Shown here: piece after piece, positions 1-16,486 of the stretch
Position numbering within the stretch: the stretch's first letter is position 1
Layout of the letters: each line of letters begins with the position of its first letter
Source of the DNA: a virus
Taxonomy: Duplodnaviria; Heunggongvirae; Uroviricota; Caudoviricetes
Direction: 5' to 3' (one strand)
Length of the DNA: 16,486 bases
IMG/VR virus record: IMGVR_UViG_2740892258_000006
Translations under genes and position numbers: made by a program
Notes under the pieces: generated by a model
The model's database searches: none
The model's input: only the letters and a program-made list of their open reading frames with translations
Told to the model about the DNA's origin: nothing

Positions 1-158
1 AGGAATAAGGCAAACCCAAGCGGTGCTTTCGACTGCACCATCCCCTGCGCAGCCATTACATCCGTAATTGTTAAACCACCCGAGCCTGTCGCCGATGCGT
101 CATCGCTCAATTTTGGAGATTTTGGGGAGTAATATTTCGGTAAGGCTTCAAGGTTCAT
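1..158 (-). CDS. Q: Antitermination protein Q (lambda Q-type), N-terminal 52 codons; gene runs off the left edge
   Basis: ATG at 158-156 with GGAG 7 nt upstream; translation MNLEALPKYYSPKSPKLSDDASATGSGGLTITDVMAAQGMVQSKAPLGFALF closely parallels the lambda Q N-terminus as I recall it (MRLESVAKFHSPKSP...GTDVMAAMGMAQSQAGFGMAAF). Confidence 0.7.
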   Translation of the reverse strand, partial: MNLEALPKYYSPKSPKLSDDASATGSGGLTITDVMAAQGMVQSKAPLGFALF

Positions 159-171
159 GCTCGTTCTCCAC

Positions 172-1077
172 TTACACCAGTACGCCAATTGCCAGCGCAC
201 GATCGATAAAACGAAATATCAGCTCCAGCTGGGAGCCATACATCTCTTCAAATGCCACGGTATCCGCATGCAGCTCGTCGTGATGCTTTCTGCACAAAGG
301 CAACACAAAAAGGTCATGCGCTTTTGTACCCATTCCACCCTGTCCGTGGCCTATCAGGTGGTGGGGATCATCAGCGGGCTTTCCACAACATGCACACGAC
401 TGTGTCTTAACCCAGCGCGTGTACTTTTCATTAACCCAGCGGCGACGTTTTGGGCGTAACATAAAAGACTCCGGCGACTCCGGATCCACTTTCAGCGCCA
501 GCACCTTTTTCGCCTTATCCTGGATGATGCTGGTGGCAGGAACCGAAGGCACAAGGTCACTTTCCCGGGTGACAGACGGCACAACAGGCTTCGGTAATCT
601 CAGTGCCTTACGGGCTGCACTTTCCGGTAAGGCATCCGCCAGATCATTACGAACCAGCCACCAGCACAGTTCCGGCATTGTCACAACGTGACTGTCATCA
701 AAACCGAGATCCCGACGCACAACAGACAACACCCAGCGGGCACAGTTATCCGTTGCCATTGATTCCAGCCGTTCCGTGAACTGATCGCGAAGCAGGTTAT
801 CGCAGTGCCAGCACAGACGGATTGCGCCCGGCGCGTGTCGCATTGTGGTCATGTTCTCGCTGTGCCAGTCGGAATGAGGCCACTGACAGCCCTTTTCACG
901 AAGTAACCAGCTTTCAAGACATTCCACACCCCCCGCACGACGAATAACTGCCTCATTGCGGAACACGGCCCGAATGGCAGGATCATCCGCCAGCGGTTGT
1001 GATGCCGCCGGAACGGCACCACTGGCAAAAGATGAATAACGTTCCGGCTCAGGCTCCAGCAGGACACGCCCCTGCAT
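172..1077 (-). CDS. Phage protein with C-terminal Cys/His zinc-finger/HNH-like motif (DUF968-like, tentative)
   Basis: 301-aa ORF; C-terminal CACCGKPADDPHHLIGHG...LCRKHHDELH motif; sits between KilA-N gene and Q; start may lie further upstream (see finding on T6 run at 1119-1124). Confidence 0.6.
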   Translation of the reverse strand: MQGRVLLEPEPERYSSFASGAVPAASQPLADDPAIRAVFRNEAVIRRAGGVECLESWLLREKGCQWPHSDWHSENMTTMRHAPGAIRLCWHCDNLLRDQFTERLESMATDNCARWVLSVVRRDLGFDDSHVVTMPELCWWLVRNDLADALPESAARKALRLPKPVVPSVTRESDLVPSVPATSIIQDKAKKVLALKVDPESPESFMLRPKRRRWVNEKYTRWVKTQSCACCGKPADDPHHLIGHGQGGMGTKAHDLFVLPLCRKHHDELHADTVAFEEMYGSQLELIFRFIDRALAIGVLV

Positions 1078-1243
1078 AAACAGCCGAACATGCAGCCTTT
1101 CGCCGTCAGCGACCAGAATTTTTTGATGTTGTTAATCGCTGTACGGCTGTATCGTTCGCGCTGTTCGACGATCCCCAGCTTCGCCATCTGGTGATATGCC
1201 TGATTAGCCGTAAGGCGGATACCATACTGTTTCAGCAGTGCAC

Positions 1244-1692
1244 TCAGCGACAGTGTCGGGCGACTTGAGCCATCAGGCGCGTCAGCAGGAGCATCAATGG
1301 CATAGCGCGGTGCGGTGTGCTGGTTACCATATCGAAAGTACGGATCACCTTCAGATGGAATGACGGGCTTATCCACATTGCATAGGCATACACCAGTTCT
1401 TTGCAGACATACGTCCCCTGGTTATTTCCGCCACGAATAACGTTAACTGGCTCTATATTGACCGAGTTGCAAATCTGCAACTCGCTTATTAAACGTTCAG
1501 TTTGCTCATTGCGGAGCCAGAATGCAGGCTTATGCTTATCCAGAGAACCGGCAGCCCTGTGCAGATCGTTCAGGCTGTAACGCCCATAAGCATCACGACG
1601 AACTTCAATACCATCTGCAGATCGTTCAGGCTGTAACGCCCATAAGCATCACGACGAACTTCAATACCATCAATAACCATCAGATTATTCAT
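1244..1692 (-). pseudogene. KilA-N domain protein (antirepressor-like), frame broken by a 56-bp tandem duplication
   Basis: ATG at 1692 with GGAGAAACGAAGT upstream; MNNLMVIDGIEVRRDAYGRYSLNDLHRAAG... joins ORF 1244..1480 (…ICNSVNIEPVNVIRGGNNQGTYVCKELVYAYAMWISPSFHLKVIRTFD) only if one copy of 1560-1671 is removed. Confidence 0.55.
1560..1671. repeat. Perfect tandem duplication, 2 x 56 bp (1560-1615 = 1616-1671)
   Basis: Identical copies read directly from sequence; inside KilA-N gene. Confidence 0.95.
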
Positions 1693-1711
1693 ACTTCGTT
1701 TCTCCTCTTAA

Positions 1712-2157
1712 TCAGGCAGCTGCACCCGCCGTTTTCTCGTACTTACTGATAGTGATCTCGACCTTCCCTTCCGGGATAACCGGTCCCCACTCCACCAGCA
1801 TTCTTTTCACCTGACTGTCGTCTTCCCACACACCCGCGTGGGTCAGGGCGTCAAACAGCGCCTTGTTATAGTTGTCCAGATCGCGGATCCGGTTATCCGG
1901 AGGAAACAACACGATCTCCACTGAAGCAGGTGCCGACGTTGGTTTCGGTTATCCGGAGGAAACAACACGATCTCCACTGAAGCAGGTGCCGACGTTGGTT
2001 TTGGCAGACGACGTAACTGCTCAACTATTGCTGCACACGCCGCGCTCTGGAATTTGCGCCCCGCCGCGCTTATCAGGCTCTTACCAGCAAACGCCCCTTT
2101 GTTGGGGTGTCGCCAGTACGTGTTCACGCTGGGCGGAAACGGCAGAATCAGCTTCAT
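1712..2157 (-). pseudogene. rusA: Holliday-junction resolvase RusA, frame broken by a 56-bp tandem duplication
   Basis: ORFs 1843..2157 (MKLILPFPPSVNTYWRH...) and 1712..1921 (...DNRIRDLDNYNKALFDALTHAGVWEDDSQV...) join into about 129 aa RusA-like protein when one duplicated copy is removed; ATGA stop/start overlap with upstream gene. Confidence 0.7.
1890..2001. repeat. Perfect tandem duplication, 2 x 56 bp (1890-1945 = 1946-2001)
   Basis: Identical copies read directly from sequence; inside rusA. Confidence 0.95.
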
Positions 2158-2480
2158 ACTTTCAGGCCCCTCTCATGTAACCAGTGGGCTGCACGCAGCC
2201 TGGCGTTTTCCTTACCGGCAAGCAGTGAGCGGATAATCCCGACCGCCTCGCTGTCGTCGTCCTTCACCGCGGTATGAAGAGTGATACCCCGGGCCACGCC
2301 ACGCTTTATCGTGATGACGCCTTTTTTCTCCAGTGCTCGAAGATGCTCCACCGCTGCATTCACTGAACGGTATCCCAGCATGGTTGCCACCTCCTGATTG
2401 GTTGGCGGGAAGCCACGTTCTTTCTGATAAGAAATCAGCATATCCAGCACCTGCTGCTGGCATTGAGTTAACGTCGTCAT
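2154..2480 (-). CDS. LexA N-terminal DNA-binding-domain protein (winged helix), phage regulator
   Basis: 108 aa; MTTLTQCQQQVLDMLISYQKERGFPPTNQEVATMLGYRSVNAAVEHLRALEKKGVI parallels LexA N-terminus; ATGA overlaps with neighbours on both sides. Confidence 0.65.
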   Translation of the reverse strand: MTTLTQCQQQVLDMLISYQKERGFPPTNQEVATMLGYRSVNAAVEHLRALEKKGVITIKRGVARGITLHTAVKDDDSEAVGIIRSLLAGKENARLRAAHWLHERGLKV

Positions 2481-3130
2481 GCCGCCATCTCCCTGAGCAG
2501 TTTTTCCGCCTGCTGGCGAACCTGCGCCAGAAACGCCTCACCACATGCCTCAAGTTCATCGCGCCCGATGTAGCTGATTGCCGGTCCCTTCCAGGTCTTG
2601 TCAAAAACAGCAATAGCACCAGCGAAGAAAGCTCCTGTCGGCACCTGCTTCTCGTCTTTCGGGATAAACCAGACAGGCAGTTCAAAACCAATACGCCCGC
2701 GAATAAAAGCAATATGATCTGCATCTTCCGGCCACCACACTTCGCTGGTGGCAGCTTTGATCAGGAAAACATAGCGCCCGCCTTTATCACGCATGGCACT
2801 GGCATGCTTCATGATGTAACGCATGCCGGTGATGTATTGCCCCTCATGCTGACTGGCGCGGCTGTATGGGGGATTACCAAAGGCAGCACCTTTAAGCTCC
2901 GCAAGACGTTCTGACCAGTCATGCGCCAGCGCATTGTCTTCCGCCGTGTAATACGCGGCACATTTGGCGTTACCACCGTCGGTGAACAGATCCAGAACAA
3001 ACGGGCCAAACAGGGTGTTAATTCCCCAGAAAATGTTGTCCGGCGTGCGCCACTGATCGCCCACTTCCTTCAGTTCATGGGCTGGTTTGTTCCGCAGCTC
3101 CACCAGCGCCTGGCAATATTTATTACTCAT
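2477..3130 (-). CDS. Phage DNA N6-adenine methyltransferase (Dam-like, orphan)
   Basis: NPPY motif (AFGNPPYSRA); start taken at ATG 3130 (MSNKYCQ...) where TAATG overlaps upstream stop; ORF track extends to 3163. Confidence 0.7.
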   Translation of the reverse strand: MSNKYCQALVELRNKPAHELKEVGDQWRTPDNIFWGINTLFGPFVLDLFTDGGNAKCAAYYTAEDNALAHDWSERLAELKGAAFGNPPYSRASQHEGQYITGMRYIMKHASAMRDKGGRYVFLIKAATSEVWWPEDADHIAFIRGRIGFELPVWFIPKDEKQVPTGAFFAGAIAVFDKTWKGPAISYIGRDELEACGEAFLAQVRQQAEKLLREMAA

Positions 3131-3624
3131 TAAGCCCCCACGTAATTCCCTGACAGATACCACTCTTCACCCGATGCAGCGCGCTTGCTGCTTTTCCGTA
3201 AGCACCGCTCACGACGCGCCAGAAAATTGTTTCGTTCTGGCTGGGAGTGGCTTTCACGGAATGCCGCCATCCACACGGTTGCAGCACGACGGTATAAACC
3301 CCTGGACTCCAGTTCTTCAGCCTGGCGGGTCAGGCACAAAATCACCCGTGGATCGTTAGTGCCGACATAGAAATTGCGCACAGGTCTGGTTTCTCGAACT
3401 GGTTGTGGTTCCGGTTCCTGCGCTCTCTCAGTCAGGCGCGGGAAATGTCTGCGTGTATCTCCTTCACAACGGTGAGCCACACGCCCACTCTGACGTAACT
3501 TGCTTGCTGACTGCAGAACGCGCTGTCGTGAGTAACCTGCAAAAGCATCCGCAATGTCACCGGAAGTACACCCCGGATGGGCTTCAATGAATTTCTGAAC
3601 GTCATTTAACAGACTCATGATCAC
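3130..3624 (-). CDS. Phage regulatory protein, C-terminal half PerC/Pch-like
   Basis: LESRGLYRRAATVWMAAF resembles the PerC-family GLWRRAA..W motif; N-terminal half looks winged-helix-like; GTG 3624 or ATG 3618 start overlapping upstream TGA. Confidence 0.5.
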   Translation of the reverse strand: MIMSLLNDVQKFIEAHPGCTSGDIADAFAGYSRQRVLQSASKLRQSGRVAHRCEGDTRRHFPRLTERAQEPEPQPVRETRPVRNFYVGTNDPRVILCLTRQAEELESRGLYRRAATVWMAAFRESHSQPERNNFLARRERCLRKSSKRAASGEEWYLSGNYVGA

Positions 3625-4154
3625 CCCCTGAATCCTGCCGGGATCTGGCTGTAGTCCACGTTGTCGTAACTGGCTTTGAAGTACGGGTCCTCGCGTTTTT
3701 CGGTGTACGTACTTACGGACGGCGATAAGCGCAGGGAAAGCTCATCCCATTTTTCCCGCAGCTTCGACGGGCTGAGCACGTTACGGCACCAGAACGGATC
3801 GCGGCTGACGCGGCTGTACATCTCGCAGATTTGTTTGTGAGTACGACCATCCTGCACACACATCAGGCGAATTTCGTTTGCCCAGGCTGTCCAGTTCGGT
3901 TCTTTGGGACGAACCACCTCGCCGTCACATTCGGCAGCCTGCTCGTACAGGGCGATGATTTTTTTCCAGAGCCACTGTGCGCAGGTCAAATCATCCTGCG
4001 TTCCCCACTGGCGCTTTTTAGGGCTGAATACAACAGCATCAGGATGGCGAGTTAAAAACTCCTGTTCAGCCGTCTGCGTGTCCGGTTGCGAAGCGTCCGG
4101 ACGAGAAGTTTTTTTCAGTTGCGAGCGACGGTAGTGTGTTGTTAAACTGTTCAT
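3621..4154 (-). CDS. Hypothetical phage early protein (177 aa), function not assigned
   Basis: Intact ORF, translationally coupled (ATGA) to upstream CII-like gene; Trp/Cys-rich C-terminal region. Confidence 0.55.
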   Translation of the reverse strand: MNSLTTHYRRSQLKKTSRPDASQPDTQTAEQEFLTRHPDAVVFSPKKRQWGTQDDLTCAQWLWKKIIALYEQAAECDGEVVRPKEPNWTAWANEIRLMCVQDGRTHKQICEMYSRVSRDPFWCRNVLSPSKLREKWDELSLRLSPSVSTYTEKREDPYFKASYDNVDYSQIPAGFRG

Positions 4155-4238
4155 GCGTTAGTTTCTCCACAGTCACGACACGCCACGGCGCCCGGAGCTG
4201 CACACTCGCGGGCGTCACTACTTTCTGAAACGCAAAAG

Positions 4239-4338
4239 ATTTTGTAGACCAGTGCTGCATGCTCCTGCAGCTTCGAAATTGAGAGGTAATTTTGTAGACC
4301 AGTGCTGCATGCTCCTGCAGCTTCGAAATTGAGAGGTA
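4239..4338. repeat. Perfect tandem duplication, 2 x 50 bp (4239-4288 = 4289-4338)
   Basis: Identical copies read directly from sequence. Confidence 0.95.
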
Positions 4339-4545
4339 CAGCTCATCGTTAATTGCTGTCTTCTCATGCGGTTCCACTACACCGTCTTCAATTGCTGAAC
4401 GAATCTGTTTTGAATAACTGCCGATCTGTTCAATGACCTCCAGCAGGCGTTGGTTGATATCGGCGTTGTCCACATCCTCGACGTCAGGAAGAGACACAAA
4501 GACGCCATTTGCAGACTGCGCCACAGCATCAGCAATGAAGTGAGT

Positions 4546-4567
4546 GCCACCAGCACGCCACCAGCAC
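4546..4567. repeat. Perfect tandem duplication, 2 x 11 bp (ccaccagcacg, phase ambiguous by one base)
   Basis: Read directly from sequence; both flanking ORFs encode RAGG across it. Confidence 0.85.
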
Positions 4568-4806
4568 GCTGTAAAACCATTGCCCATCCCAGCGGGAAAA
4601 TCTGATCGCCATCTGCACGAAGGCGGTTGAATAAAGCGTTTTCTGTTACATCGAGCCAGTCAGCCGCTTCAGCGTAACCACCCGGCAACGCCGCGATCGT
4701 TTTTCTGACAGCTTTCACGTACCACTCAGGCTGTTTTTCTATTTTCCAGTGATGCTTACCCACGATTAGCCTCATCGTTCTGTGGTTAAAAATTGAAAGT
4801 GTTCTG

Positions 4807-5007
4807 CTAATCTTTCGGATAGATATCCGGTCTTAAGTCAGATTTCGTAATTGCACCTGACGTGCATTGCTCAAGTTTTTTAGCCAGCACAAAACTGGCT
4901 TTTTTATAGCCATTGAAAACCAGCCGTAAGTAGCCAGGTGTTGAGCCAACTTTTCCGGCCAACTCGCCCTGCTGTTCTTTGGTTAAAGAGTCCCAATACG
5001 CTTTCAT
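4807..5007 (-). CDS. cro: Cro-like small HTH repressor
   Basis: 66-aa ORF (MKAYWDSLTKEQQGELAGKVGSTPGYLRLVFNGYKK...) divergent from cI-like gene; GGAGG upstream; start at 5007 within longer ORF 4807..5310. Confidence 0.6.
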   Translation of the reverse strand: MKAYWDSLTKEQQGELAGKVGSTPGYLRLVFNGYKKASFVLAKKLEQCTSGAITKSDLRPDIYPKD

Positions 5008-5013
5008 ACAATG

Positions 5014-5079
5014 TGTACCTCCGGTGTACATATTACATGATTGAAATGAACCTTCAAGATACTTGTACCTTAACGGTAC
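5014..5079. promoter_or_regulatory. Immunity-region operators and divergent promoters: O1 TGTACCtccggTGTACA (5014-5030), O2 TGTACCttaacGGTACA (5063-5079); PR-like -10 TAATAT (5030-5035) and -35 CTTGAA (5053-5058) on minus strand
   Basis: Two 17-bp dyad sites sharing TGTACC half-sites between divergent cro and cI starts; 17-bp spacer between -35 and -10. Confidence 0.5.
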
Positions 5080-5097
5080 AAGGGTTTTAATTTCGTT

Positions 5098-5772
5098 ATG
5101 AAAACAATCCATGACATCCGGCGGTCTAACGCCAGAAAACTGAGAGATGGTGTTGGCGGGAATTCTTCCTTTGCCACTATGATTGATCGCGAGCCAACCC
5201 AGACCAGCAGGTTTATGGGAGATGGTGCTACTAAAAATATCGGTGACAGCATGGCACGACACATCGAAAAATGTTTCGACCTGCCTGTCGGATGGCTCGA
5301 TCAAGAACACCAGACAACGAACATCACAAAAAAACCTGATGTTTCAATCACTAATAAACAAATCACATTAGTCCCTGTCATATCATGGGTACAGGCCGGA
5401 GCATGGAAAGAAGTTGGATATTCTGAGGTTGATTTGAGCACAGCAGAAACGTATCCCTGCCCTGTACCCTGTGGGGAAATGACTTATATCTTGCGGGTGA
5501 TAGGTGATTCAATGATTGATGAGTACCGCCCGGGAGACATGATTTTTGTCGATCCTGAAGTACCTGCCTGCCACGGTGACGACGTTATTGCATTGATGCA
5601 CGATACAGGTGAAACCACCTTCAAAAGGTTGATAGAAGATGGGACACAGCGTTATCTCAAAGCGTTAAACCCAAACTGGCCTGAGCCTTACATTAAGATC
5701 AACGGTAATTGCTCTATAATTGGTACTGTGATTTTCTCAGGAAAACCAAGAAGATACAAAATCAAAGCCTAA
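5098..5772 (+). CDS. cI: CI-like prophage repressor (HTH N-terminus + S24 LexA-type peptidase C-terminus)
   Basis: C-terminal GDSM Ser motif and downstream Lys (TFKRL) of S24 autopeptidases; divergent from cro. Confidence 0.8.
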   Translation: MKTIHDIRRSNARKLRDGVGGNSSFATMIDREPTQTSRFMGDGATKNIGDSMARHIEKCFDLPVGWLDQEHQTTNITKKPDVSITNKQITLVPVISWVQAGAWKEVGYSEVDLSTAETYPCPVPCGEMTYILRVIGDSMIDEYRPGDMIFVDPEVPACHGDDVIALMHDTGETTFKRLIEDGTQRYLKALNPNWPEPYIKINGNCSIIGTVIFSGKPRRYKIKA

Positions 5773-5784
5773 TCAATGTTTATG

Positions 5785-5807
5785 AACCTGCTTCGGCAGG
5801 TTTTTTT
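5785..5807 (+). terminator. Rho-independent terminator after cI (aacctgc-ttcg-gcaggtt + T7)
   Basis: 7-bp GC-containing stem, 4-nt loop, T-run. Confidence 0.7.
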
Positions 5808-5924
5808 ATACTTGACAATGTACCTTTGAGATACATAATGTACCCAAGAGAAACAACAAACAGGCAGGACGCCCACGAAGTAGCCGCCTGGGGCATATGA
5901 AGTCCAGGATGATTCGTTAGCAAC

Positions 5925-5947
5925 AAAAAAGCGCCCTATAGGACGCT
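5925..5947 (-). terminator. Rho-independent terminator for the LprI-like gene (agcgucc-uaua-gggcgcu + U6 on minus strand)
   Basis: Hairpin with one G-U pair followed by T6, 28 nt after the stop. Confidence 0.55.
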
Positions 5948-5974
5948 TCGCTCTTTAACAATCTGGATGACTTA

Positions 5975-6487
5975 TTACTCAGATTTGAACTTTGGTTCTG
6001 GCAAAAGAGGAGGAGTTGAGTCCTCGAATCGTAGCCAGTGCTCCCAGATATCGTGGGATTGTAATTCCAGAAGACCAATTTGACGTGATGCAACTGCAGT
6101 GCCAGCTATAGTTCCTCCTGCATAATCAACCTGGACGGACTTTGACGCTTTCTCAATTAATTCTGTCCAAGCTTCACTTTCCGCGTTAAAAGAAGCAGTT
6201 AATTCCTGCAGACGCTGTGGATCATCCTTGTTGTCTTGTTTCAAACGATTCAGGGCGGCCACCGAATACTTATTCTTAACCCAACTAACCTGAGCTAACT
6301 GAACTCTCTGACAAGCGTCCATATCAGTAGTTGTTTCCTGAGGCATATCAAAGCAGGAAATAAAAAAAGTCTCAACACCATCATTTAGACTACTGCTCGG
6401 CTGGTTCAAAGCATCAGAAGCATTGGATGCTATCGGTATTATCAGTGCTACCGACAGAATCAAACGTTTAACATAAATCGCTCCCAT
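5975..6487 (-). CDS. Secreted/periplasmic protein with signal peptide, LprI-like (DUF1311) fold suspected; moron
   Basis: N-terminal MGAIYVKRLILSVALIIPIASNA signal-like sequence; Cys...Cys and Trp/Tyr spacing reminiscent of DUF1311; antisense to surrounding operon; own terminator. Confidence 0.5.
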   Translation of the reverse strand: MGAIYVKRLILSVALIIPIASNASDALNQPSSSLNDGVETFFISCFDMPQETTTDMDACQRVQLAQVSWVKNKYSVAALNRLKQDNKDDPQRLQELTASFNAESEAWTELIEKASKSVQVDYAGGTIAGTAVASRQIGLLELQSHDIWEHWLRFEDSTPPLLPEPKFKSE

Positions 6488-6968
6488 TTAATTATCCCCT
6501 CTAAGAACAGAGTCATCCAGATTAGCCGAATCCTTGTTGTTGGGGAATAACCAGGCCCACCTCGCCTGATGTGGCTAAAAGCAGGCACATAACAGCTAAG
6601 TATTTTCAACCAGAGAGAATCCTTAGCGTTGTGGTGAATGCGGCTCAGCGCACGCGGGTTAAGGTTGAGGCTGACAGTCGACCTTCTGTGGATACCCACC
6701 CGCCTGGTGTGCAACCTTCGCCAGGCACCGGGAGGCACCCGGCACCACAACTTTATGCTGTGTGTAGTCCTGGCGGTACCAGCATGCCCTTATTTCTGCT
6801 CAGGGTGTTAATGAAATTATCAGTAAGATTGGTGCCGACGCAGTGGCATTACCTGAAAATTTCCGCATTCATGATCTGGAAAAATTTAATTTAAATCGCT
6901 TCCGTTTCCGTGGTGCGCTTTCCACTGCCAGCATCGATGACTTTACCCGTTATTCTAAAGATCTTGCG

Positions 6969-7080
6969 GATGAAGGCACCCGCTGCTTTATCGATGCCGA
7001 TAATATGCGTGCCGTCAGTGTGCTGATGAAGGCACCCGCTGCTTTATCGATGCCGATAATATGCGTGCCGTCAGTGTGCT
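6969..7080. repeat. Perfect tandem duplication, 2 x 56 bp (6969-7024 = 7025-7080)
   Basis: Identical copies read directly from sequence. Confidence 0.95.
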
Positions 7081-7204
7081 TAACCTGGGTACTATTGATG
7101 AGCCTGGTCACGCAGATAACACCGCCACTCTCAAACTGAAAAAGACAGCACCGTTCTCTGCTCTGTTGTCTGTTAATGGCGAGCGTCATTCCCAGAAGTC
7201 ACTG

Positions 7205-7316
7205 GCAGAATGGATTGAAGACTGGGCCGACTACCTTGTGGGCTTTGATGCTAATGGTGAGCAGAATGGATTGAAGACTGGGCCGACTACCTTGTGGGCT
7301 TTGATGCTAATGGTGA
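7205..7316. repeat. Perfect tandem duplication, 2 x 56 bp (7205-7260 = 7261-7316)
   Basis: Identical copies read directly from sequence. Confidence 0.95.
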
Positions 7317-7980
7317 TGCCATTCAGGCAACAAAAGCGGCTGCGGCAGTCCGTAAAATCACGATTGAAGCAAACCAGACCGCTGATTTTGAAGACAATGA
7401 CTTCAGCGGCAAACGCTCCCTGATGGAGTCTGTCGAAGCGAAGACCAAAGATATTATGCCAGTGGCATTTGAATTTAAATGCGTTCCGTTTGAAGGCCTG
7501 AAAGAACGTCCGTTTAAATTACGCCTCAGCATTATCACTGGCGATCGTCCTGTACTGGTTCTGCGCATTATTCAGCTGGAAGCAGTGCAGGAAGAAATGG
7601 CTAACGAATTTCGTGATCTGCTTGTTGAGAAATTCAAGGACAGCAAAGTAGAAACCTTTATTGGTACTTTTACCGCCTGATTTCATTACTGCAAATGCCC
7701 CTGCGGGGGCATTTATGGAAACGTAATTGACTCAATAATCGCCGGATGGTGAGGGCTTTCTTTTACCAGAATTCAGCGCGGTGCAGCGCATATACGTGGA
7801 GAACAAAATGTCATTTATTAAAACTTTTTCCGGGAAGCATTTTTATTATGACAGGATAAATAAAGACGACATCGTTATTAACGATATCGCGGTTTCTCTT
7901 TCAAATATCTGTCGCTTTGCAGGACATCTTTCACATTTCTACAGCGTCGCCCAACATGCGGTGCTTTGCAGCCAACTGGT

Positions 7981-8092
7981 ACCGCAGGAATTTGCTTTTG
8001 AAGCGTTAATGCATGATGCAACAGAAGCGTATTGCCACCGCAGGAATTTGCTTTTGAAGCGTTAATGCATGATGCAACAGAAGCGTATTGCC
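7981..8092. repeat. Perfect tandem duplication, 2 x 56 bp (7981-8036 = 8037-8092)
   Basis: Identical copies read directly from sequence. Confidence 0.95.
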
Positions 8093-8222
8093 AGGACATC
8101 CCCGCGCCGCTGAAACGCCTTCTTCCTGACTATAAACGGATGGAAGAAAAAATAGACGCCGTAATCCGTGAGAAATACGGGTTACCCCCGGTTATGAGTA
8201 CGCCCGTGAAATATGCCGATCT

Positions 8223-8334
8223 CATCATGCTGGCAACCGAACGCCGCGATCTCGGGCTTGATGATGGCTCTTTCTGGCCATCATGCTGGCAACCGAACGC
8301 CGCGATCTCGGGCTTGATGATGGCTCTTTCTGGC
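8223..8334. repeat. Perfect tandem duplication, 2 x 56 bp (8223-8278 = 8279-8334)
   Basis: Identical copies read directly from sequence. Confidence 0.95.
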
Positions 8335-8552
8335 CCGTACTGGAAGGTATCCCGGCAACAGAGATGTTCAAAGTTATTCCACTGTCGCCAGGCCATACCT
8401 ATGGGATGTTTATGGAACGCTTTAAAGAGTTAACTGAGTCGTAAAAATCAGCACGTACGAATTCAAACTCTGCCATAAAAGAACATATAAGTAATTTATT
8501 AACATATAGATATAGGTTATATTACAAATTGAAAAATTATTGGAGAGCAACA

Positions 8553-9419
8553 ATGAATCAAAATCCATTCTCATTCTATGACTTTCTTGGATATTTAATA
8601 CCAGGTGGTTTTTTTATCCTATTAATGTATTTCTGTGGTTTGACATTCGATCTAGATATTGTTATTGACTTAAGTGAATTGCTCAGAGGTCAAAGTCAAA
8701 TCTTTGGCATTTTGAACTACGCTTCAATAGTTATTATATCTTATATAGCTGGACATTTTATTTCTATCACGTCAGCATTTTTTATCGAAAAATACATGAA
8801 TAAAGAATTAGGATATCCTTCCAAATATCTATTTAAAAAATTGATAGATACCTCAGAAAGCATTTGTAGCCCATCATGCGATGAGAGAAGCGCTGATAAA
8901 AAAACAAAAATAAAGAATCGCATAATCAAATGCGTATTATGTCCAATAATACTATGGGATTTTATAACACAAAAACTATGTTATTCTCAATCTCTACCAT
9001 TTCATTTAGCTAATACAACATGGTTAATGATCAAAGAAGGTTATGAGAAAAAGTTCATAACAAATCGCCAATTATTACAAGATAAAAACGGACTTGATGA
9101 TGATCTCTTCAGATTGGCATATCATTATGTTTATGAGTTTTCAAAACAACATCAAACAAAAATTCAAAACTATGTTGCATTATATGGTTTTTGCAGAAAC
9201 ATATGTTTAATCTTTATAATTTCATTTTGGGTATCAGTTCCAACCTTTATTTATCGATTATGTACTCATAGTGATTATCTTTATAGTTTACTTTCAATAA
9301 TGCTTAGCTTTTTCTTCGTCTATGTTTTCTATGTTGGTTTTGTTAAATTTTATAGAAGATATACTTTAGAAGTATTAATGGCATTTGCTGTACTTCAAAG
9401 TAACGACACTATTCGTTAA
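8553..9419 (+). CDS. AT-rich multi-pass membrane protein (4-5 predicted TM helices), moron of unknown function
   Basis: ATG 8553 with GGAGA 7 nt upstream; hydrophobic segments FLGYLIPGGFFILLMYF, IFGILNYASIVIISYIAGHFI, ICLIFIISFWVSVPTFIY, LLSIMLSFFFVYVFYVGFV; strongly AT-rich versus neighbours. Confidence 0.6.
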   Translation: MNQNPFSFYDFLGYLIPGGFFILLMYFCGLTFDLDIVIDLSELLRGQSQIFGILNYASIVIISYIAGHFISITSAFFIEKYMNKELGYPSKYLFKKLIDTSESICSPSCDERSADKKTKIKNRIIKCVLCPIILWDFITQKLCYSQSLPFHLANTTWLMIKEGYEKKFITNRQLLQDKNGLDDDLFRLAYHYVYEFSKQHQTKIQNYVALYGFCRNICLIFIISFWVSVPTFIYRLCTHSDYLYSLLSIMLSFFFVYVFYVGFVKFYRRYTLEVLMAFAVLQSNDTIR

Positions 9420-9460
9420 TAATGTTGCTCCCGTGTGCAGACGGGATAATGGAGAAACGT

Positions 9461-9667
9461 ATGCTGAACCTCGATTGTGTTCCTATCTCAACTTATTGCA
9501 AAGAAACTGGCGAAACTCCTGAAGCAATAAACAAACGTGTACAGCGCGGTGTTTGGCGTGAAGGTGTTCAGGTTTTAAAGGTTGAAGGCGTTAAGGAGAG
9601 GTGGATTGATCTTAGTGAGGTTGCAAAATGGGCCAGACAAAACTGCTCAAACTACCGCGCGGCGTAA
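9461..9667 (+). CDS. xis: Excisionase-like protein (Xis)
   Basis: Small basic protein directly upstream of and overlapping int; start at ATG 9461 (GGAG 6 nt upstream) within ORF 9422..9667. Confidence 0.6.
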   Translation: MLNLDCVPISTYCKETGETPEAINKRVQRGVWREGVQVLKVEGVKERWIDLSEVAKWARQNCSNYRAA

Positions 9668-10800
9668 CAATCAGGAAACACCACCAGGGAGAAACGATCA
9701 ATATAACTTTCACCTACAAAGGAGTTAGATGTCGTGAGCCGCTTTCCAATCTGGAAGTAACACCAAAGAACATTAAATACGCCGAGCGTACACTCGGCGA
9801 AATCCATAATAAGATCGAAAGGGGAACATTCATTTATGCAGAATATTTTCCCCGTTCTGCTCGTTTGAAAATTTTTGGTAATGCTGCTGCAAGCAAAACG
9901 GTAAAGATGTACCTGGACGAATATCTTGAAATCTGCGAAACAAGAAAACTTTCACCCTCTACGATTGGTGGCTATAAAAAATGCCGTAGTGCGTTAGCCT
10001 CACTTCACATTTGCCCTGCAAGTGAATTAACACCAGCAACCCTGAAAGCGTGGATTCAAAGCCAGAAAACAACCTTAAAAACCATTCGCAACCAGTTATC
10101 TTTCCTACGGTCAGCACTTGATGAAGCCGTGACCGATGGGGTACTTCAAATTAACCCCGTATCGTTAGTAACAGCTTCGCGCTACCAAAGTGATAAGTCA
10201 GAAGCAGAAAGCAGCTATGTGGTTGATCCGCTATCACCAGCAGAAGTTGATGCATTACTAGCAGCAGCCGGAAACAAACAATGGGAAAATCTGTTCCGGT
10301 TCGCCATACATACAGGCCTGCGTAGTTCTGAATTATGTGCCCTACGATGGCATGATATCGACTTTGTTGGAAAAACAGCCCATGTTCAGAGCGCAAGTGT
10401 TGTCGGAGTTATCAAAGGAACAAAGACAAAAGCCGGTACCCGTAAAGTTGAACTGACTGAAGAAGCAATGTTGGCGTTGATAAACCAGAAGCCATTTACA
10501 TTCATGAAGGATGCTACTGTCTTTGAAGATCCAAAGACCAATAAACCCTGGGCAAGTGCTGATGCAATTAGGAAAAAAGCATGGGTGCCAACATTGCGAA
10601 AAGCAGGTATTCGTTACAGAAACCCATATCAAACCAGGCATACATTCGCCACCAGCCATATCAGCCGGGGAGCAAACCTGTTTTGGCTTGCGGCTCAAAT
10701 GGGCCATAAAGGGCCTGAAATGTTATTCAGGCACTATGGACAATACTTGAAAGAGTATGATGGGAGGGCAAGTATCAAGGATAAAAAGGCTTTATTTTAA
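9628..10800 (+). CDS. int: Tyrosine site-specific integrase (lambda-type with N-terminal arm-binding domain)
   Basis: 390 aa; catalytic-domain signatures HTGLRSSELCALRW (Arg), RHTFATSH (His-x-x-Arg), GHKGPEMLFRHYGQY (His...Tyr). Confidence 0.9.
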   Translation: MGQTKLLKLPRGVTIRKHHQGETINITFTYKGVRCREPLSNLEVTPKNIKYAERTLGEIHNKIERGTFIYAEYFPRSARLKIFGNAAASKTVKMYLDEYLEICETRKLSPSTIGGYKKCRSALASLHICPASELTPATLKAWIQSQKTTLKTIRNQLSFLRSALDEAVTDGVLQINPVSLVTASRYQSDKSEAESSYVVDPLSPAEVDALLAAAGNKQWENLFRFAIHTGLRSSELCALRWHDIDFVGKTAHVQSASVVGVIKGTKTKAGTRKVELTEEAMLALINQKPFTFMKDATVFEDPKTNKPWASADAIRKKAWVPTLRKAGIRYRNPYQTRHTFATSHISRGANLFWLAAQMGHKGPEMLFRHYGQYLKEYDGRASIKDKKALF

Positions 10801-11409
10801 GTCATTATGCCAATCGTCTACTGTTTGAAACCAAATTTTTAACCTTTGCATAAAGGTACGATCCTTTTTGGGAGGGTGGTACCTTTGAAAAGAAGTATGT
10901 AACGCTTCGATAACTCCCATACAAGCATCAATTACTTCTTGTGCTTTAACCGGGCGATCGGCATCTGAAAGCTTGTGAGCGACCTCACAATCCAGAGTTG
11001 CTTTCTCTAGTACAGATGAGAACACCTCGTCAGGTATATACAGTCCTCTGCTTTCCAAAATGCAAATCAGTTTGGAAACTTGTTGAGCTTTAGCCAAGAT
11101 AGTTAACAAGTATGAAACAGAAGCCTTTGTTCTATCCTTTTGCAACCTTAACAATCGATGCTTTGATGCTCTAATTTTAGGTTGAGTTGTCTGACTGAGC
11201 CAATAGTTAGAAGAAATATCAGAAATTTCAATAACTAACTTTGAAATAGCATCAATAATTGATTTCGATTCAGAACGTGTCGCCAGTTTTACAGAATTAT
11301 TGTACGCAACTCGCCATCCAATGAAAACTAAGCAGACGCTAACTACTGTGATACACCACGAATACTGTCCTATTTGTGCTACTAATGACATTGGTTCCGT
11401 ACTGATCAA
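10792..11409 (-). CDS. Cargo operon gene C: membrane-anchored protein (one N-terminal TM helix, helical soluble domain), unknown function
   Basis: TTG start at 11409 with AAGAGG overlapping upstream stop (alternative ATG 11391); TM segment YSWCITVVSVCLVFIGWRVAY; 3' end overlaps int by 9 nt. Confidence 0.6.
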   Translation of the reverse strand: MISTEPMSLVAQIGQYSWCITVVSVCLVFIGWRVAYNNSVKLATRSESKSIIDAISKLVIEISDISSNYWLSQTTQPKIRASKHRLLRLQKDRTKASVSYLLTILAKAQQVSKLICILESRGLYIPDEVFSSVLEKATLDCEVAHKLSDADRPVKAQEVIDACMGVIEALHTSFQRYHPPKKDRTFMQRLKIWFQTVDDWHNDLK

Positions 11410-11419
11410 CTATCGCCTC

Positions 11420-11746
11420 TTATACTCTTTCTGGTTGTGCTAAATCAATAAATTTATCAATCTGTTCTTTGTAGAACGGAACATCACTTTTTATAATCAA
11501 ACGTGCTTTAACGTTGGCTTTAGGTATCCCTTCCTTACGGATGAGACCTCCAAACGCCTCTTCTAAGAAAGAGGAACCAACACCCAGTGCTATACCGCGA
11601 AAATCAACCACAATCTCCTGTTCAGTACCCTTCAGCGCAGGCACCAAAAACTCTCTACGAAATCTTTCCGCACTGTGTGGGCTATCCGTTGTGTAACGTC
11701 CGAAAGGTGTTCTGGAGAACTCCTTCGCTATGACGATATTTCTCAT
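11420..11746 (-). CDS. Cargo operon gene B: small STAS-like protein (DUF4325-like, tentative)
   Basis: 108 aa; AGGAG 8 nt upstream of ATG 11746; motif EIVVDFRGIALGVGSSFLEEAFGGLI resembles STAS-like DUF4325 as I recall it; 4-nt gap to gene A. Confidence 0.6.
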   Translation of the reverse strand: MRNIVIAKEFSRTPFGRYTTDSPHSAERFRREFLVPALKGTEQEIVVDFRGIALGVGSSFLEEAFGGLIRKEGIPKANVKARLIIKSDVPFYKEQIDKFIDLAQPERV

Positions 11747-11750
11747 AAAA

Positions 11751-12662
11751 TCATCTCCTGGGAACCAGCGACCATTGTAGTAAAGTACCCGGTATGTACT
11801 CAGCTAGCTTCTCACATCGAGGACTACTGTCATTAGAATTATAGCTATAACGAGCCCTTCCTGTTAGTATCAGAAGTGTCTCATTATCCTCACAACCTGC
11901 CCCAATAGGTCTCTTGATATCTTCAGAGCCATTTCCCCGTCCGGAACCAACAAAGCGGGATTCCCCTACTAACATAGCTCTTTCCACAGAAGATACTTCG
12001 TTTTGAATGCTATGACCATCACCATTAGGCACGAAACTTCTATAAATCCCCAATCCAAGGTCACAAACGATAAAAACGACTTTATTTTCATCACGATTGA
12101 ACCAAGCGCACTGCCACCATCGTTTACCTTTGAGAAGCTGAATATCTGACTCGAACCCCTCATCTTCATACGCATGATGAGAAACATTGAGCAAAGCTTC
12201 ACTAATCGCTGTCAGCAGTAAGCCTAACTGTTCATTATTAAGCAGAGCACTTTTCTGCAGCATGAGTACTGTTTCAACAATATGCTCGTAAGGTTCGACA
12301 GCTGACTGAAAGTATCGTTCCTCCCTCGTAAGTGCATTCAGTTTCTCTTCTGTGCCAGCAAGCAAAGCACGAGCAAGTCCAGTACCAACGATCCATCTAT
12401 GCCCAGATGGGTTATCATCCTTTTTAGGCCATTTAAAACGTATAAAATTAGGGTCCCGGGTTAAAAATTGAGCTCTATTTACTATGGCAAAGAACAGTAC
12501 CGATGCCGCAGCTGAGGCAAATTTTACCTTGGACAAATCAACTATAACTCGACCTTTATTTTTTACTCCAATCGATTCAATCGAGTTGATGAAGTTCAAT
12601 GTCCCAGCCCTAGAATCATCTGAGTAAATGCAAAATTTGCTTGGGGGTACCAGTATGGTCAT
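11751..12662 (-). CDS. Cargo operon gene A: GHKL (histidine-kinase-like) ATPase with unassigned N-terminal domain
   Basis: 303 aa; Bergerat-fold motifs in the C-terminal half: N-box EALLNVSHHA, G1 CDLGLGI, G2 GSGRGNG. Confidence 0.65.
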   Translation of the reverse strand: MTILVPPSKFCIYSDDSRAGTLNFINSIESIGVKNKGRVIVDLSKVKFASAAASVLFFAIVNRAQFLTRDPNFIRFKWPKKDDNPSGHRWIVGTGLARALLAGTEEKLNALTREERYFQSAVEPYEHIVETVLMLQKSALLNNEQLGLLLTAISEALLNVSHHAYEDEGFESDIQLLKGKRWWQCAWFNRDENKVVFIVCDLGLGIYRSFVPNGDGHSIQNEVSSVERAMLVGESRFVGSGRGNGSEDIKRPIGAGCEDNETLLILTGRARYSYNSNDSSPRCEKLAEYIPGTLLQWSLVPRR

Positions 12663-12813
12663 AGCGATGTCATTCTTATACGATGGATTTATAGATTATC
12701 TACTATTCATAGTTGGTTATGAAGACTGGGATATAACAGTAAAAGATACGTGTAAGATCCGCAAGATAGTTAATGTCGAAAAAATCATTAATTACATCAA
12801 GTTAGTGATATTT

Positions 12814-12851
12814 GGACTCGGGTTCAACTCCCGCCAGCCAATCATGATTGG
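12814..12851 (+). other. Candidate att remnant: 25-nt match to the 3' end of tmRNA/ssrA (GGACtCGGGTTCAACTCCCGCCAGC) followed by perfect palindrome CCAATCATGATTGG (12838-12851)
   Basis: Recalled E. coli ssrA 3' end is ...GGACGCGGGTTCAACTCCCGCCAGCTCCACCA; one mismatch here and divergence after CAGC. Confidence 0.55.
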
Positions 12852-12970
12852 ACGGTGTAAGGACTACACCAACAAAAACAGGAAGTTATAAGTCTCAGCA
12901 GGACACCGACCAGACGGTGAGGAGACAAAAAAGGATACGCAACGGAGTCGCGACTCCCTATGACATTAAA

Positions 12971-12993
12971 GCCCGCTGATGCGGGCTTTTTTA
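12971..12993 (+). terminator. Rho-independent terminator (gcccgc-tgat-gcgggc + T6)
   Basis: Perfect 6-bp GC stem, 4-nt loop, T-run; lies about 130 bp downstream of the ssrA-like fragment. Confidence 0.65.
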
Positions 12994-13299
12994 TTGGTCC
13001 TGACCCGCCCTGAATAGAATTCATCCAATTACAGTCCAGACATATACAGTATCCCTCAGCTCAGTATCAGCTTCTCGACAAATGGTCACTGTTATTTACC
13101 CGTTGCCAGAAAGAGAATAATTTGCCCCCATAGCCAGCCTTCCCGGAATCTGTATATTCATTAATATTGTTATCGATTCCATCAAGTAACATAGGTTGGA
13201 TGCGATTGATCTTACTCACATTAGTCGACACGGAACTCAGTAAGTTGAACTCTGAAAAAGCAGTTTAAATAGCATTTAAACAAATGCCACCAGTTCGAA

Positions 13300-14500
<1,201 letters not shown>

Positions 14501-14519
14501 GCGCAAAGGAATTGAGCGG

Positions 14520-15788
14520 ATGTATGATTTTTTGATTATTGGCGGCGGCATCATCGGCATGTCGACCGCCATGCAACTAATTGATGTTTATCCGGATGCC
14601 CGCATAGCGTTGCTGGAAAAAGAGCCCGGCCCGGCCTGTCACCAGACGGGCCACAACAGTGGCGTAATCCATGCCGGGGTCTATTACACGCCCGGCAGCC
14701 TGAAGGCGCAGTTTTGCCTGGCAGGAAACCGCGCCACCAAAGCCTTTTGCGATCAAAACGGTATTCGCTACGACAACTGCGGCAAGATGCTGGTCGCCAC
14801 GTCTGAACTCGAAATGGAACGGATGCGCGCCTTATGGGAACGCACGGCGGCGAACGGAATCGATCGCGAGTGGTTAAACGCCGAAGAGCTGCGCGAGCGC
14901 GAACCAAATATCACCGGGCTGGGCGGTATTTTTGTGCCGTCCAGCGGCATTGTCAGCTACCGCGAAGTGACGGCGGCAATGGCAAAAATTTTTCAGGCCA
15001 GAGGCGGTGAGATTATCTATAACGCCGAAGTCAGCGCCCTCAGTGAGCATAAAAACGGCGTGGTGATATGTACCCGTCAGGGCGGTGAATATGAAGCATC
15101 GACGCTGATTAGCTGTTCCGGGCTGATGGCTGACCGGCTGGTGAAAATGCTCGGCCTCGAACCGGGCTTTATTATCTGCCCGTTCCGCGGCGAGTATTTC
15201 CGCCTTGCGCCGGAGCATAACCAGATTGTTAACCACCTGATTTACCCCATTCCCGACCCGGCAATGCCGTTTTTGGGCGTGCATCTCACCCGCATGATCG
15301 ACGGCAGTGTGACCGTCGGGCCAAACGCGGTGCTGGCTTTCAAACGCGAAGGCTATCGTAAGCGCGACTTCTCATTTAGCGACACGCTGGAAATTTTGGG
15401 CTCGTCGGGGATTCGCCGGGTGCTGCAAAACCATCTACGCTCAGGACTGGGCGAGATGAAAAACTCGCTGTGCAAAAGCGGCTATCTGCGGCTGGTGCAA
15501 AAGTATTGTCCCCGGCTTTCGTTAAGCGATCTCCAGCCCTGGCCCGCCGGTGTGCGGGCGCAGGCGGTATCGCCGGACGGCAAGCTGATTGACGATTTTC
15601 TGTTTGTCACCACCCCGCGCACGATCCACACCTGTAATGCGCCCTCCCCGGCAGCGACATCAGCAATTCCTATTGGTGCGCATATTGTCAGCAAGGTACA
15701 AACGCTGTTGGCAAGCCAGAGTAACCCCGGACGCACGCTGCGAGCGGCACGTAGTGTGGATGCCTTACACGCCGCATTTAATCAATAA
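14520..15788 (+). CDS. lhgO: L-2-hydroxyglutarate dehydrogenase/oxidase LhgO (FAD-dependent)
   Basis: 422 aa from ATG 14520 (AAGGA upstream); FAD-binding LIIGGGIIG motif; ORF track extends upstream to 14454 overlapping csiD. Confidence 0.9.
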   Translation: MYDFLIIGGGIIGMSTAMQLIDVYPDARIALLEKEPGPACHQTGHNSGVIHAGVYYTPGSLKAQFCLAGNRATKAFCDQNGIRYDNCGKMLVATSELEMERMRALWERTAANGIDREWLNAEELREREPNITGLGGIFVPSSGIVSYREVTAAMAKIFQARGGEIIYNAEVSALSEHKNGVVICTRQGGEYEASTLISCSGLMADRLVKMLGLEPGFIICPFRGEYFRLAPEHNQIVNHLIYPIPDPAMPFLGVHLTRMIDGSVTVGPNAVLAFKREGYRKRDFSFSDTLEILGSSGIRRVLQNHLRSGLGEMKNSLCKSGYLRLVQKYCPRLSLSDLQPWPAGVRAQAVSPDGKLIDDFLFVTTPRTIHTCNAPSPAATSAIPIGAHIVSKVQTLLASQSNPGRTLRAARSVDALHAAFNQ

Positions 15789-15810
15789 CCTTTGAAAACA
15801 GGATGTAGCG

Positions 15811-16486
15811 ATGAAACTTAACGACAGTAACTTATTCCGCCAGCAGGCGTTGATTAACGGGGAATGGCTGGACGCCAACAATGGCGAGGTCATCGACGTC
15901 ACCAATCCGGCGAACGGCGACAAGCTGGGTAGCGTGCCGAAAATGGGCGCTGATGAAACCCGCGCCGCTATCGACGCCGCCAACCGCGCCCTGCCCGTCT
16001 GGCGTGCGCTCACTGCCAAAGAACGCGCCAACATTCTGCGCAACTGGTTCAATTTAATGATGGAGCATCAGGACGATTTAGCGCGCCTGATGACCCTCGA
16101 ACAGGGCAAACCACTGGCTGAAGCGAAAGGCGAAATCAGCTACGCCGCCTCATTTATTGAGTGGTTTGCAGAAGAAGGCAAACGTATTTATGGCGACACC
16201 ATTCCCGGTCATCAGGCCGATAAACGCCTGATTGTTATCAAGCAGCCGATTGGCGTCACCGCGGCTATCACGCCGTGGAACTTCCCGGCGGCGATGATTA
16301 CCCGTAAAGCCGGTCCGGCGCTGGCGGCAGGCTGCACGATGGTGCTGAAGCCCGCCAGTCAGACGCCGTTCTCTGCGCTGGCGCTGGCAGAACTGGCGAT
16401 TCGCGCGGGCGTTCCGGCTGGCGTGTTTAACGTAGTCACCGGTTCGGCGGGCGCGGTCGGTAACGAACTGACCAGCAACCCGCTGG
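15811..16486 (+). CDS. gabD: Succinate-semialdehyde dehydrogenase GabD, 5' partial (continues beyond window)
   Basis: ATG 15811 with AGGA upstream; MKLNDSNLFRQQALINGEWLDANNGEVIDVTNPANG...; aldehyde dehydrogenase N-terminal region; no stop before window end. Confidence 0.9.
   Translation, partial: MKLNDSNLFRQQALINGEWLDANNGEVIDVTNPANGDKLGSVPKMGADETRAAIDAANRALPVWRALTAKERANILRNWFNLMMEHQDDLARLMTLEQGKPLAEAKGEISYAASFIEWFAEEGKRIYGDTIPGHQADKRLIVIKQPIGVTAAITPWNFPAAMITRKAGPALAAGCTMVLKPASQTPFSALALAELAIRAGVPAGVFNVVTGSAGAVGNELTSNPL

Follow-up and report, generated by a model that had tools for sequence, protein, structure and literature searches.

Missing bases in a draft contig, most likely lost by misassembly, explain an odd reading frame between a KilA-N gene and a DUF968 gene

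How should the DNA between the KilA-N and DUF968 genes of this contig (positions 1078-1376) be read? An open reading frame of 175 aa on the minus strand (849..1376), which contains ...LSALLKQYGIRLTANQAYHQMAKLGIVEQRERYSRTAINNIKKFWSLTAKGCMFG, runs on into the DUF968 open reading frame (172..1077, minus strand) in a different frame. A sequence-only reading of the contig had described this overlap correctly, had pointed to a T6 run at 1119-1124, and had offered three explanations: an error in the length of the homopolymer, programmed slippage, or a DUF968 protein longer than the model that starts at ATG-1077. TTTTTT does occupy these positions, with A and G on either side, and the predictions made for the run are reproduced in silico, where one added T joins the frame to DUF968, giving ...NNIKKILVADGERLHVRLFMQGRV..., and one T fewer leads to an early end, ...NNIKNSGR*. 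The suspicion that gene models in the region are wrong was justified, and the checks named with it were the ones able to settle the matter; the first two explanations are refuted, and the third is true in a limited sense. The window, by which we mean the whole stretch of DNA analysed (16,486 nucleotides), is the entire contig CVOH01000132.1 of the draft assembly GCA_001245225.1, the only contig on record with the 301-aa DUF968 product. The coordinates of its features are given in Table 1.

A Pfam search of the 175-aa frame returned no family, Pfam having no model for the C-terminal half of this KilA-N protein; it was PHROGs that identified the frame, residues 19-98 of which match positions 161-242 of the 273 in the phrog_129 profile (E=1.2e-31). 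Within that match, KilA-N residues 157-233 (APRYAID...KGCMFG) are encoded exactly by 1083-1313 and correspond to residues 22-98 of the frame. The remainder is not native protein: residues 1-21 are an out-of-frame reading of roughly KilA-N codons 87-107, with which the true frame comes into phase through the one-base shift of a 145-bp deletion, and the last 77 residues are DUF968 read out of frame. Two further open reading frames, 1570..1692 and 1244..1480, match phrog_129 positions 2-27 and 61-116. All three are parts of one KilA-N gene that is spread over three frames and lacks the last ~30 profile positions. The intact ortholog in Escherichia coli UTI89 carries the Pfam KilA-N domain (PF04383) at residues 7-105 (E=2e-26) and matches phrog_129 over positions 2-268. 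The fragments in the window match the family profile phrog_129, with the gene not present as one uninterrupted open reading frame and the native C-terminus (profile positions 243-273) absent. Positions 1078-1376 contain neither an additional gene nor a signal for recoding; they are the C-terminal half of a KilA-N-domain gene, and the intervening frame, for which the sequence-only reading had allowed that there might be no conserved counterpart, has one in that half. Short plus-strand open reading frames in the same interval (34 and 41 aa) were considered as genes and rejected, since they run antisense to the conserved coding sequence of KilA-N and nothing supports them. Scans of the window or region for Rfam families (at gathering thresholds), tRNA or tmRNA genes and terminators gave no matches, and a promoter scan gave one promoter-like match, at chance level.

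The original form of the locus can be read from seven intact relatives, namely UTI89, phiSTEC1575-Stx2k, 2H10, SfII, Stx2a_WGPS2 and the Salmonella phages F1055 and 118970_sal3, the Salmonella phages being ~86% identical in nucleotide sequence. Intact KilA-N continues for 44 more codons past the A6 run (the T6 run as read on the coding strand) before its own TGA. In all seven relatives KGCMFG is followed by 32 codons (KNITSPANPRETQPHFFES(R/K)FPELLKLLDTVH) and then the TGA, and all seven share the boundary KilA-N ...NNIKKFWSLTAKGCMFGKNITSPANPRETQPHFFES(R/K)FPELLKLLDTVH*, TGA, GGTGAYC, GTG-VRALLTPEIAPRMG(I/V)VLFRPGSELMPLFMQGRV. Here GGTGAYC is a 7-nt spacer, again in seven of seven, between the KilA-N stop and the GTG that opens DUF968 (VRALLTPEIAPRMG(I/V)VLFRPGSELMPLF-MQGRV…). 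Window positions 1-2200 match 74 phage records, in which the matched region measures ~2,430 bp and aligns in five or six pieces; the KilA-N/DUF968 boundary is intact in one piece in 55 phage records. Where relatives are annotated, the KilA-N gene is 798-810 nt long and the DUF968 gene 954-990 nt. The order rusA, KilA-N, DUF968 (YdfU-like HNH), Q is a well-known, widespread and conserved arrangement in lambdoid phages of E. coli, Shigella and Salmonella, and in this respect the locus holds nothing new.

Table 1. Positions of the genes, deletion junctions and duplications in the window, with the evidence for each.
Feature	Position	Strand	Evidence or remark
5'-truncated DUF968/YdfU-family (HNH-like) gene	172..1077	-	Pfam DUF968 (PF06147) at residues 132-298 of the 301-aa ORF, E=3.2e-80; Met1 = family Met29
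185-bp deletion junction	1082..1083	none	Alignments with phiSTEC1575-Stx2k, 2H10 and UTI89; ambiguity 1 nt
KilA-N fragment, residues 157-233	1083..1313	-	100% DNA identity to UTI89; exact substrings of WP_001061411.1 at residues 157 and 179
T6 run (A6 on coding strand)	1119..1124	-	AAA AAA = Lys220-Lys221 of KilA-N, context N-I-K-K-F-W
145-bp deletion junction in KilA-N	1312..1313	none	~codons 108-156 lost; alignments against relatives
KilA-N N-terminal part (KilA-N domain)	1314..1692	-	Split by a 56-bp tandem duplication
56-bp two-copy tandem duplication in KilA-N	1560..1671	none	TRF 100% identity, 2.0 copies; absent from relatives; frameshift after ~codon 25
56-bp two-copy tandem duplication in rusA	1890..2001	none	Exact; apparent cause shared with 1560..1671
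756-bp deletion	4115		Against UTI89; 5' part of helix-turn-helix gene and DUF4222 gene lost
50-bp exact tandem duplication	4239-4338		Absent from UTI89
11-bp tandem copy (GCCACCAGCAC x2)	4546-4556		Internal to a block; absent from UTI89
640-bp deletion	6783		Against UTI89; yfdP and start of YfdQ-family gene lost
Other 56-bp duplications	6965-7080, 7205-7316, 7981-8093, 8223-8335		Absent from UTI89 and phage relatives

Alignment of the window with these relatives locates the defect. At 1082|1083, five bases upstream of ATG-1077 and, on the coding strand, 36 nt downstream of A6, a deletion of 185 bp takes out KilA-N codons 234-265, the TGA, the 7-nt spacer and approximately the first 26 DUF968 codons including the GTG. 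A second deletion of 145 bp, at 1312|1313, shifts the register by one base and leaves the C-terminal fragment of KilA-N out of frame with the N-terminal fragment. The third frame is thus directly visible as the KilA-N C-terminus read on across a deletion. As the KilA-N stop is deleted, the KilA-N frame reads on out of frame through DUF968 to a chance stop at 849, and the division of the gene over three frames without its native stop follows from its deletions together with its 56-bp duplication. With the 5' end of DUF968 gone as well, the earliest start left to that gene is an internal codon, Met29 (ATG-1077). Both breakpoints are peculiar to this contig.

The same deletion shows in what sense DUF968 is longer than had been modelled. 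The initial Met of the window frame is residue 29 of the UTI89 protein WP_001350764.1 (329 aa), and in the phrog_96 profile (334 positions) the window protein matches from position 29 and the intact UTI89 protein over the full length, from position 1. The 28 residues missing from the window are VRALLTPEIAPRMGIVLFRPGSELMPLF, and their DNA is absent from the contig; by its domain the gene belongs to the DUF968 family, with the native N-terminus and start codon absent. Relatives do not start at the equivalent of ATG-1077, as the sequence-only reading had allowed that they might, but 28 codons upstream at the GTG. The proposal of a longer protein is therefore right for the family (329 aa, GTG start) and wrong as a description of the upstream frame, which is KilA-N. 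Annotated DUF968 starts differ by record, one giving 954 nt (317 aa, from the ATG at codon 13; 672-1625 in that record) and others 990 nt, counted from the GTG. Of five nucleotide differences shown by the Salmonella copies upstream of Met29, four are synonymous in the GTG frame; from the GTG as far as the ATG at codon 13, these copies depart from those of E. coli at four sites, every one of them synonymous in that frame. This speaks for the GTG start and for a protein of 329 aa rather than the annotated 317 aa. Further into the gene, a dinucleotide at 868-869 differs from UTI89 (Asp vs Gly in DUF968, …PHSDWHS…); the window allele is common to phage relatives, and the difference is therefore ordinary variation.

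Inspection of the whole contig places the two deletions among many lesions of the same kind. In sequence the contig is all but the same as a lambdoid prophage of E. coli UTI89 (NC_007946.1, 2,928,993-2,946,807), with which it is colinear in 12 blocks at 99.6-100% identity. It differs from it by twelve exact indels, all within 1-8335 and none within 8336-16486: four deletions and eight duplications, of which six measure 56 bp, one 50 bp and one 11 bp. The intact half, 8336-16486, falls within a single colinear block (8279-16486, 8,208 bp) that has one SNP against UTI89. Each of the six 56-bp duplications frameshifts its host gene, and several are paired around pieces of 240-330 bp. SNPs against UTI89 cluster at 7177-7189 (3 differences) and 8103-8109 (2), inside pieces that 56-bp duplications bracket, as would fit if these pieces came from a variant node of the assembly graph or from another, paralogous copy of the prophage. 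Window positions 900-2100, the one segment for which copy number was checked, occur in 2-3 copies in the closest genomes.

The genes of 1-3200 all lie on the minus strand and comprise antiterminator Q (3' part), DUF968, the KilA-N fragments (to 1692), rusA, a LexA-like gene and an N6-adenine methyltransferase; 8336-16486 holds the integrase, three small genes and glaH-lhgO-gabD. The contig starts inside antiterminator Q, at the beginning of the multi-copy late region, and ends inside gabD, the prophage adjoining glaH-lhgO-gabDT as it does in UTI89. Just outside the prophage integrase, 10792-12662 (minus strand) encodes three proteins: one of 199 aa with no Pfam match, one of 108 aa with a DUF4325 STAS-like domain (E=6e-14), and one of 303 aa with a weak, sub-threshold GHKL/HATPase_c_2 match. 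PADLOC gave no match for any gene of this cluster, which could be an accessory or defence-type module.

Deletions in E. coli are usually repeat-mediated. At all four deletions in the contig, the homology at the junction is exactly 1 nt, and we rejected repeat-mediated natural deletion on that ground; by our own estimate, a 1-nt ambiguity at all four has a probability of ~0.006 for random breakpoints. We also searched 5,426 complete E. coli genomes for the junctions. Because each 30-nt half of a 60-nt query over 1082|1083 matched alone, we used 40-mers, which can seed a megablast match only across the junction. The 40-mers over 1082|1083, 1312|1313 and 1615|1616 (the 185-bp deletion, the 145-bp deletion and the first 56-bp duplication) had zero matches in these genomes. 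Both 30-nt flanks of 1082|1083 occur in one place in 808 E. coli genomes, and that place spans 245 nt, with the flanks 185 bp apart, in the ten matches listed of the 808.

The odd frame leading from KilA-N into DUF968 stems from 185 bases missing from the draft contig, very probably by misassembly. Short-read assemblers break on repeats such as multi-copy prophage segments, and untrimmed overlaps of fixed length at contig joins are an artefact class of de Bruijn-graph or gap-closed draft assemblies. The marks of an artefact were found here in the absence of the three tested junctions from 5,426 genomes, in the fixed size of 56 bp and in the repetition of 900-2100. Six duplications of an identical 56 bp in particular indicate misassembly. 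The breakpoints are accordingly to be read, most probably, as errors of draft short-read assembly or of gap closure, not as events in the strain, and the 56-bp duplications as a fixed algorithmic overlap, for example k-1 bases left untrimmed at joins. A literature search by assembly accession found no paper, and the attribution to a pipeline is therefore one that we infer; a search of the literature on GapFiller, SSPACE and Velvet duplication artefacts found nothing directly usable.

The rival that survives best is that the deletions, and perhaps the duplications too, are real mutations in the isolate, so that the prophage is decaying and KilA-N and DUF968 are genuine pseudogenes joined by the 185-bp deletion. 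Early regions of prophages are known to decay, UTI89 has one frameshifted gene in the same prophage, and the contig sequence is clean apart from the lesions, with simple deletion junctions. Set against this are twelve exact indels beside only ~10 SNPs in 8.3 kb, and no such indel in the neighbouring 8.2 kb; six independent duplications, each of exactly 56 bp, for which no biological cause is known; four deletions with nothing beyond 1-nt microhomology; and the failure of all three tested junctions to appear in any complete genome searched. We regard real decay as unlikely, and, judged from these sequence comparisons, misassembly appears much the likelier of the two. If the 185-bp and 145-bp deletions were nevertheless real, the KilA-N remnant would abut a start-less DUF968, and rare slippage on A6 or initiation at Met29 could give some DUF968 nuclease, an outcome to which we assign a very small chance.

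A miscalled homopolymer, the true sequence of which would fuse or end the frame, is a far weaker candidate. Homopolymers are a known source of error on some platforms, and one added T does give a continuous open reading frame into DUF968. The length of the run, however, is six in all seven intact relatives, namely UTI89 (100% identical over 1083-1313) and six phages, Salmonella phages among them, and in each of these it encodes the conserved K220-K221 inside an intact KilA-N frame. As a homopolymer it is unremarkable, one of 23 runs of at least six in the window, where composition shuffles average 12.5 (sd 3.5). On the coding strand the run reads AAC ATC AAA AAA TTC (N-I-K-K-F); the codons beside it vary synonymously among relatives (ATC/ATT, TTC/TTT), and in the zero frame the KilA-N protein stays conserved across the run and past it, including in the ~86%-identical relatives. 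Neither the addition nor the removal of a T restores a homologous protein in silico, and the fusion peptide ...KKILVADGERLHVRLF... corresponds to nothing in homologs. What actually disturbs the frame is the 185-bp deletion a short way downstream. The T6 run is a normal Lys-Lys pair of KilA-N at its correct length, and we consider a miscall highly improbable.

Polymerase slippage usually needs a homopolymer of 8-9 or more, and the ribosomal motif is X XXY YYZ. Programmed ribosomal or transcriptional slippage on A6 that couples KilA-N and DUF968 expression is the least credible reading, with a likelihood that we put close to nil: the one point in its favour is that in CVOH01000132.1 the two frames happen to be a single base away from joining, whereas the intact relatives have no overlapping frames and no second frame to slip into, only a stop, the 7-nt spacer and a separate, independent GTG start, the register AUC-AAA-AAA-UUC is not X XXY YYZ in the zero frame, six A's are shorter than the runs known for efficient transcriptional slippage, and downstream of A6 the zero-frame amino acids are kept across 86%-identical relatives. 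The apparent overlap of frames exists because of the contig-specific deletion only.

What was noticed at this locus was described correctly, but it is a flaw of the contig and no biological feature. Its value is mainly one of data quality: the prophage half, 1-8335, is unfit for inferring gene models, pseudogenes or recoding, and the six 56-bp duplications form a pattern easy to recognise, by which like defects could be flagged in other contigs of the assembly or batch.

To programmed -1/+1 frameshift and slippage sites (dnaX A AAA AAG, the G/GT of phage tail chaperones, the A-runs of IS elements), the locus bears the likeness of a short coding A-run at which a one-base shift joins two open reading frames in the contig; it differs from them in that relatives have no conserved overlapping frame, the heptamer is out of register and the run is only six. 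The likeness to untrimmed-overlap artefacts consists in several tandem duplications, exact, in two copies and all 56 bp long, that are confined to the multi-copy prophage part of a short-read draft contig, some of them bracketing short pieces (240-330 bp). A simple k-1 overlap model is departed from by one duplication of 50 bp, one of 11 bp and one 56-bp copy with a mismatch at 7024, and it does not account for the four deletions. The genes themselves are familiar. Against intact KilA-N, the window copy has a 56-bp duplication after ~codon 25 and is without codons 234-265 and roughly 108-156; over the parts present, its DNA is 100% identical to the gene of UTI89, whose product (WP_001061411.1, 265 aa) is, with 2H10 gp46 and SfII gp46, the closest known protein (phrog_129, 'transcriptional regulator'). 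Of intact DUF968, 28 codons at the 5' end are missing from the contig, the GTG start among them, as is the spacer before it, where the ribosome-binding site would lie; residues 29-329 of the DUF968 / YdfU putative HNH nuclease (PF06147; phrog_96; WP_001350764.1) are nearly identical in the window, and its DUF968 and HNHc_6 domains are intact.
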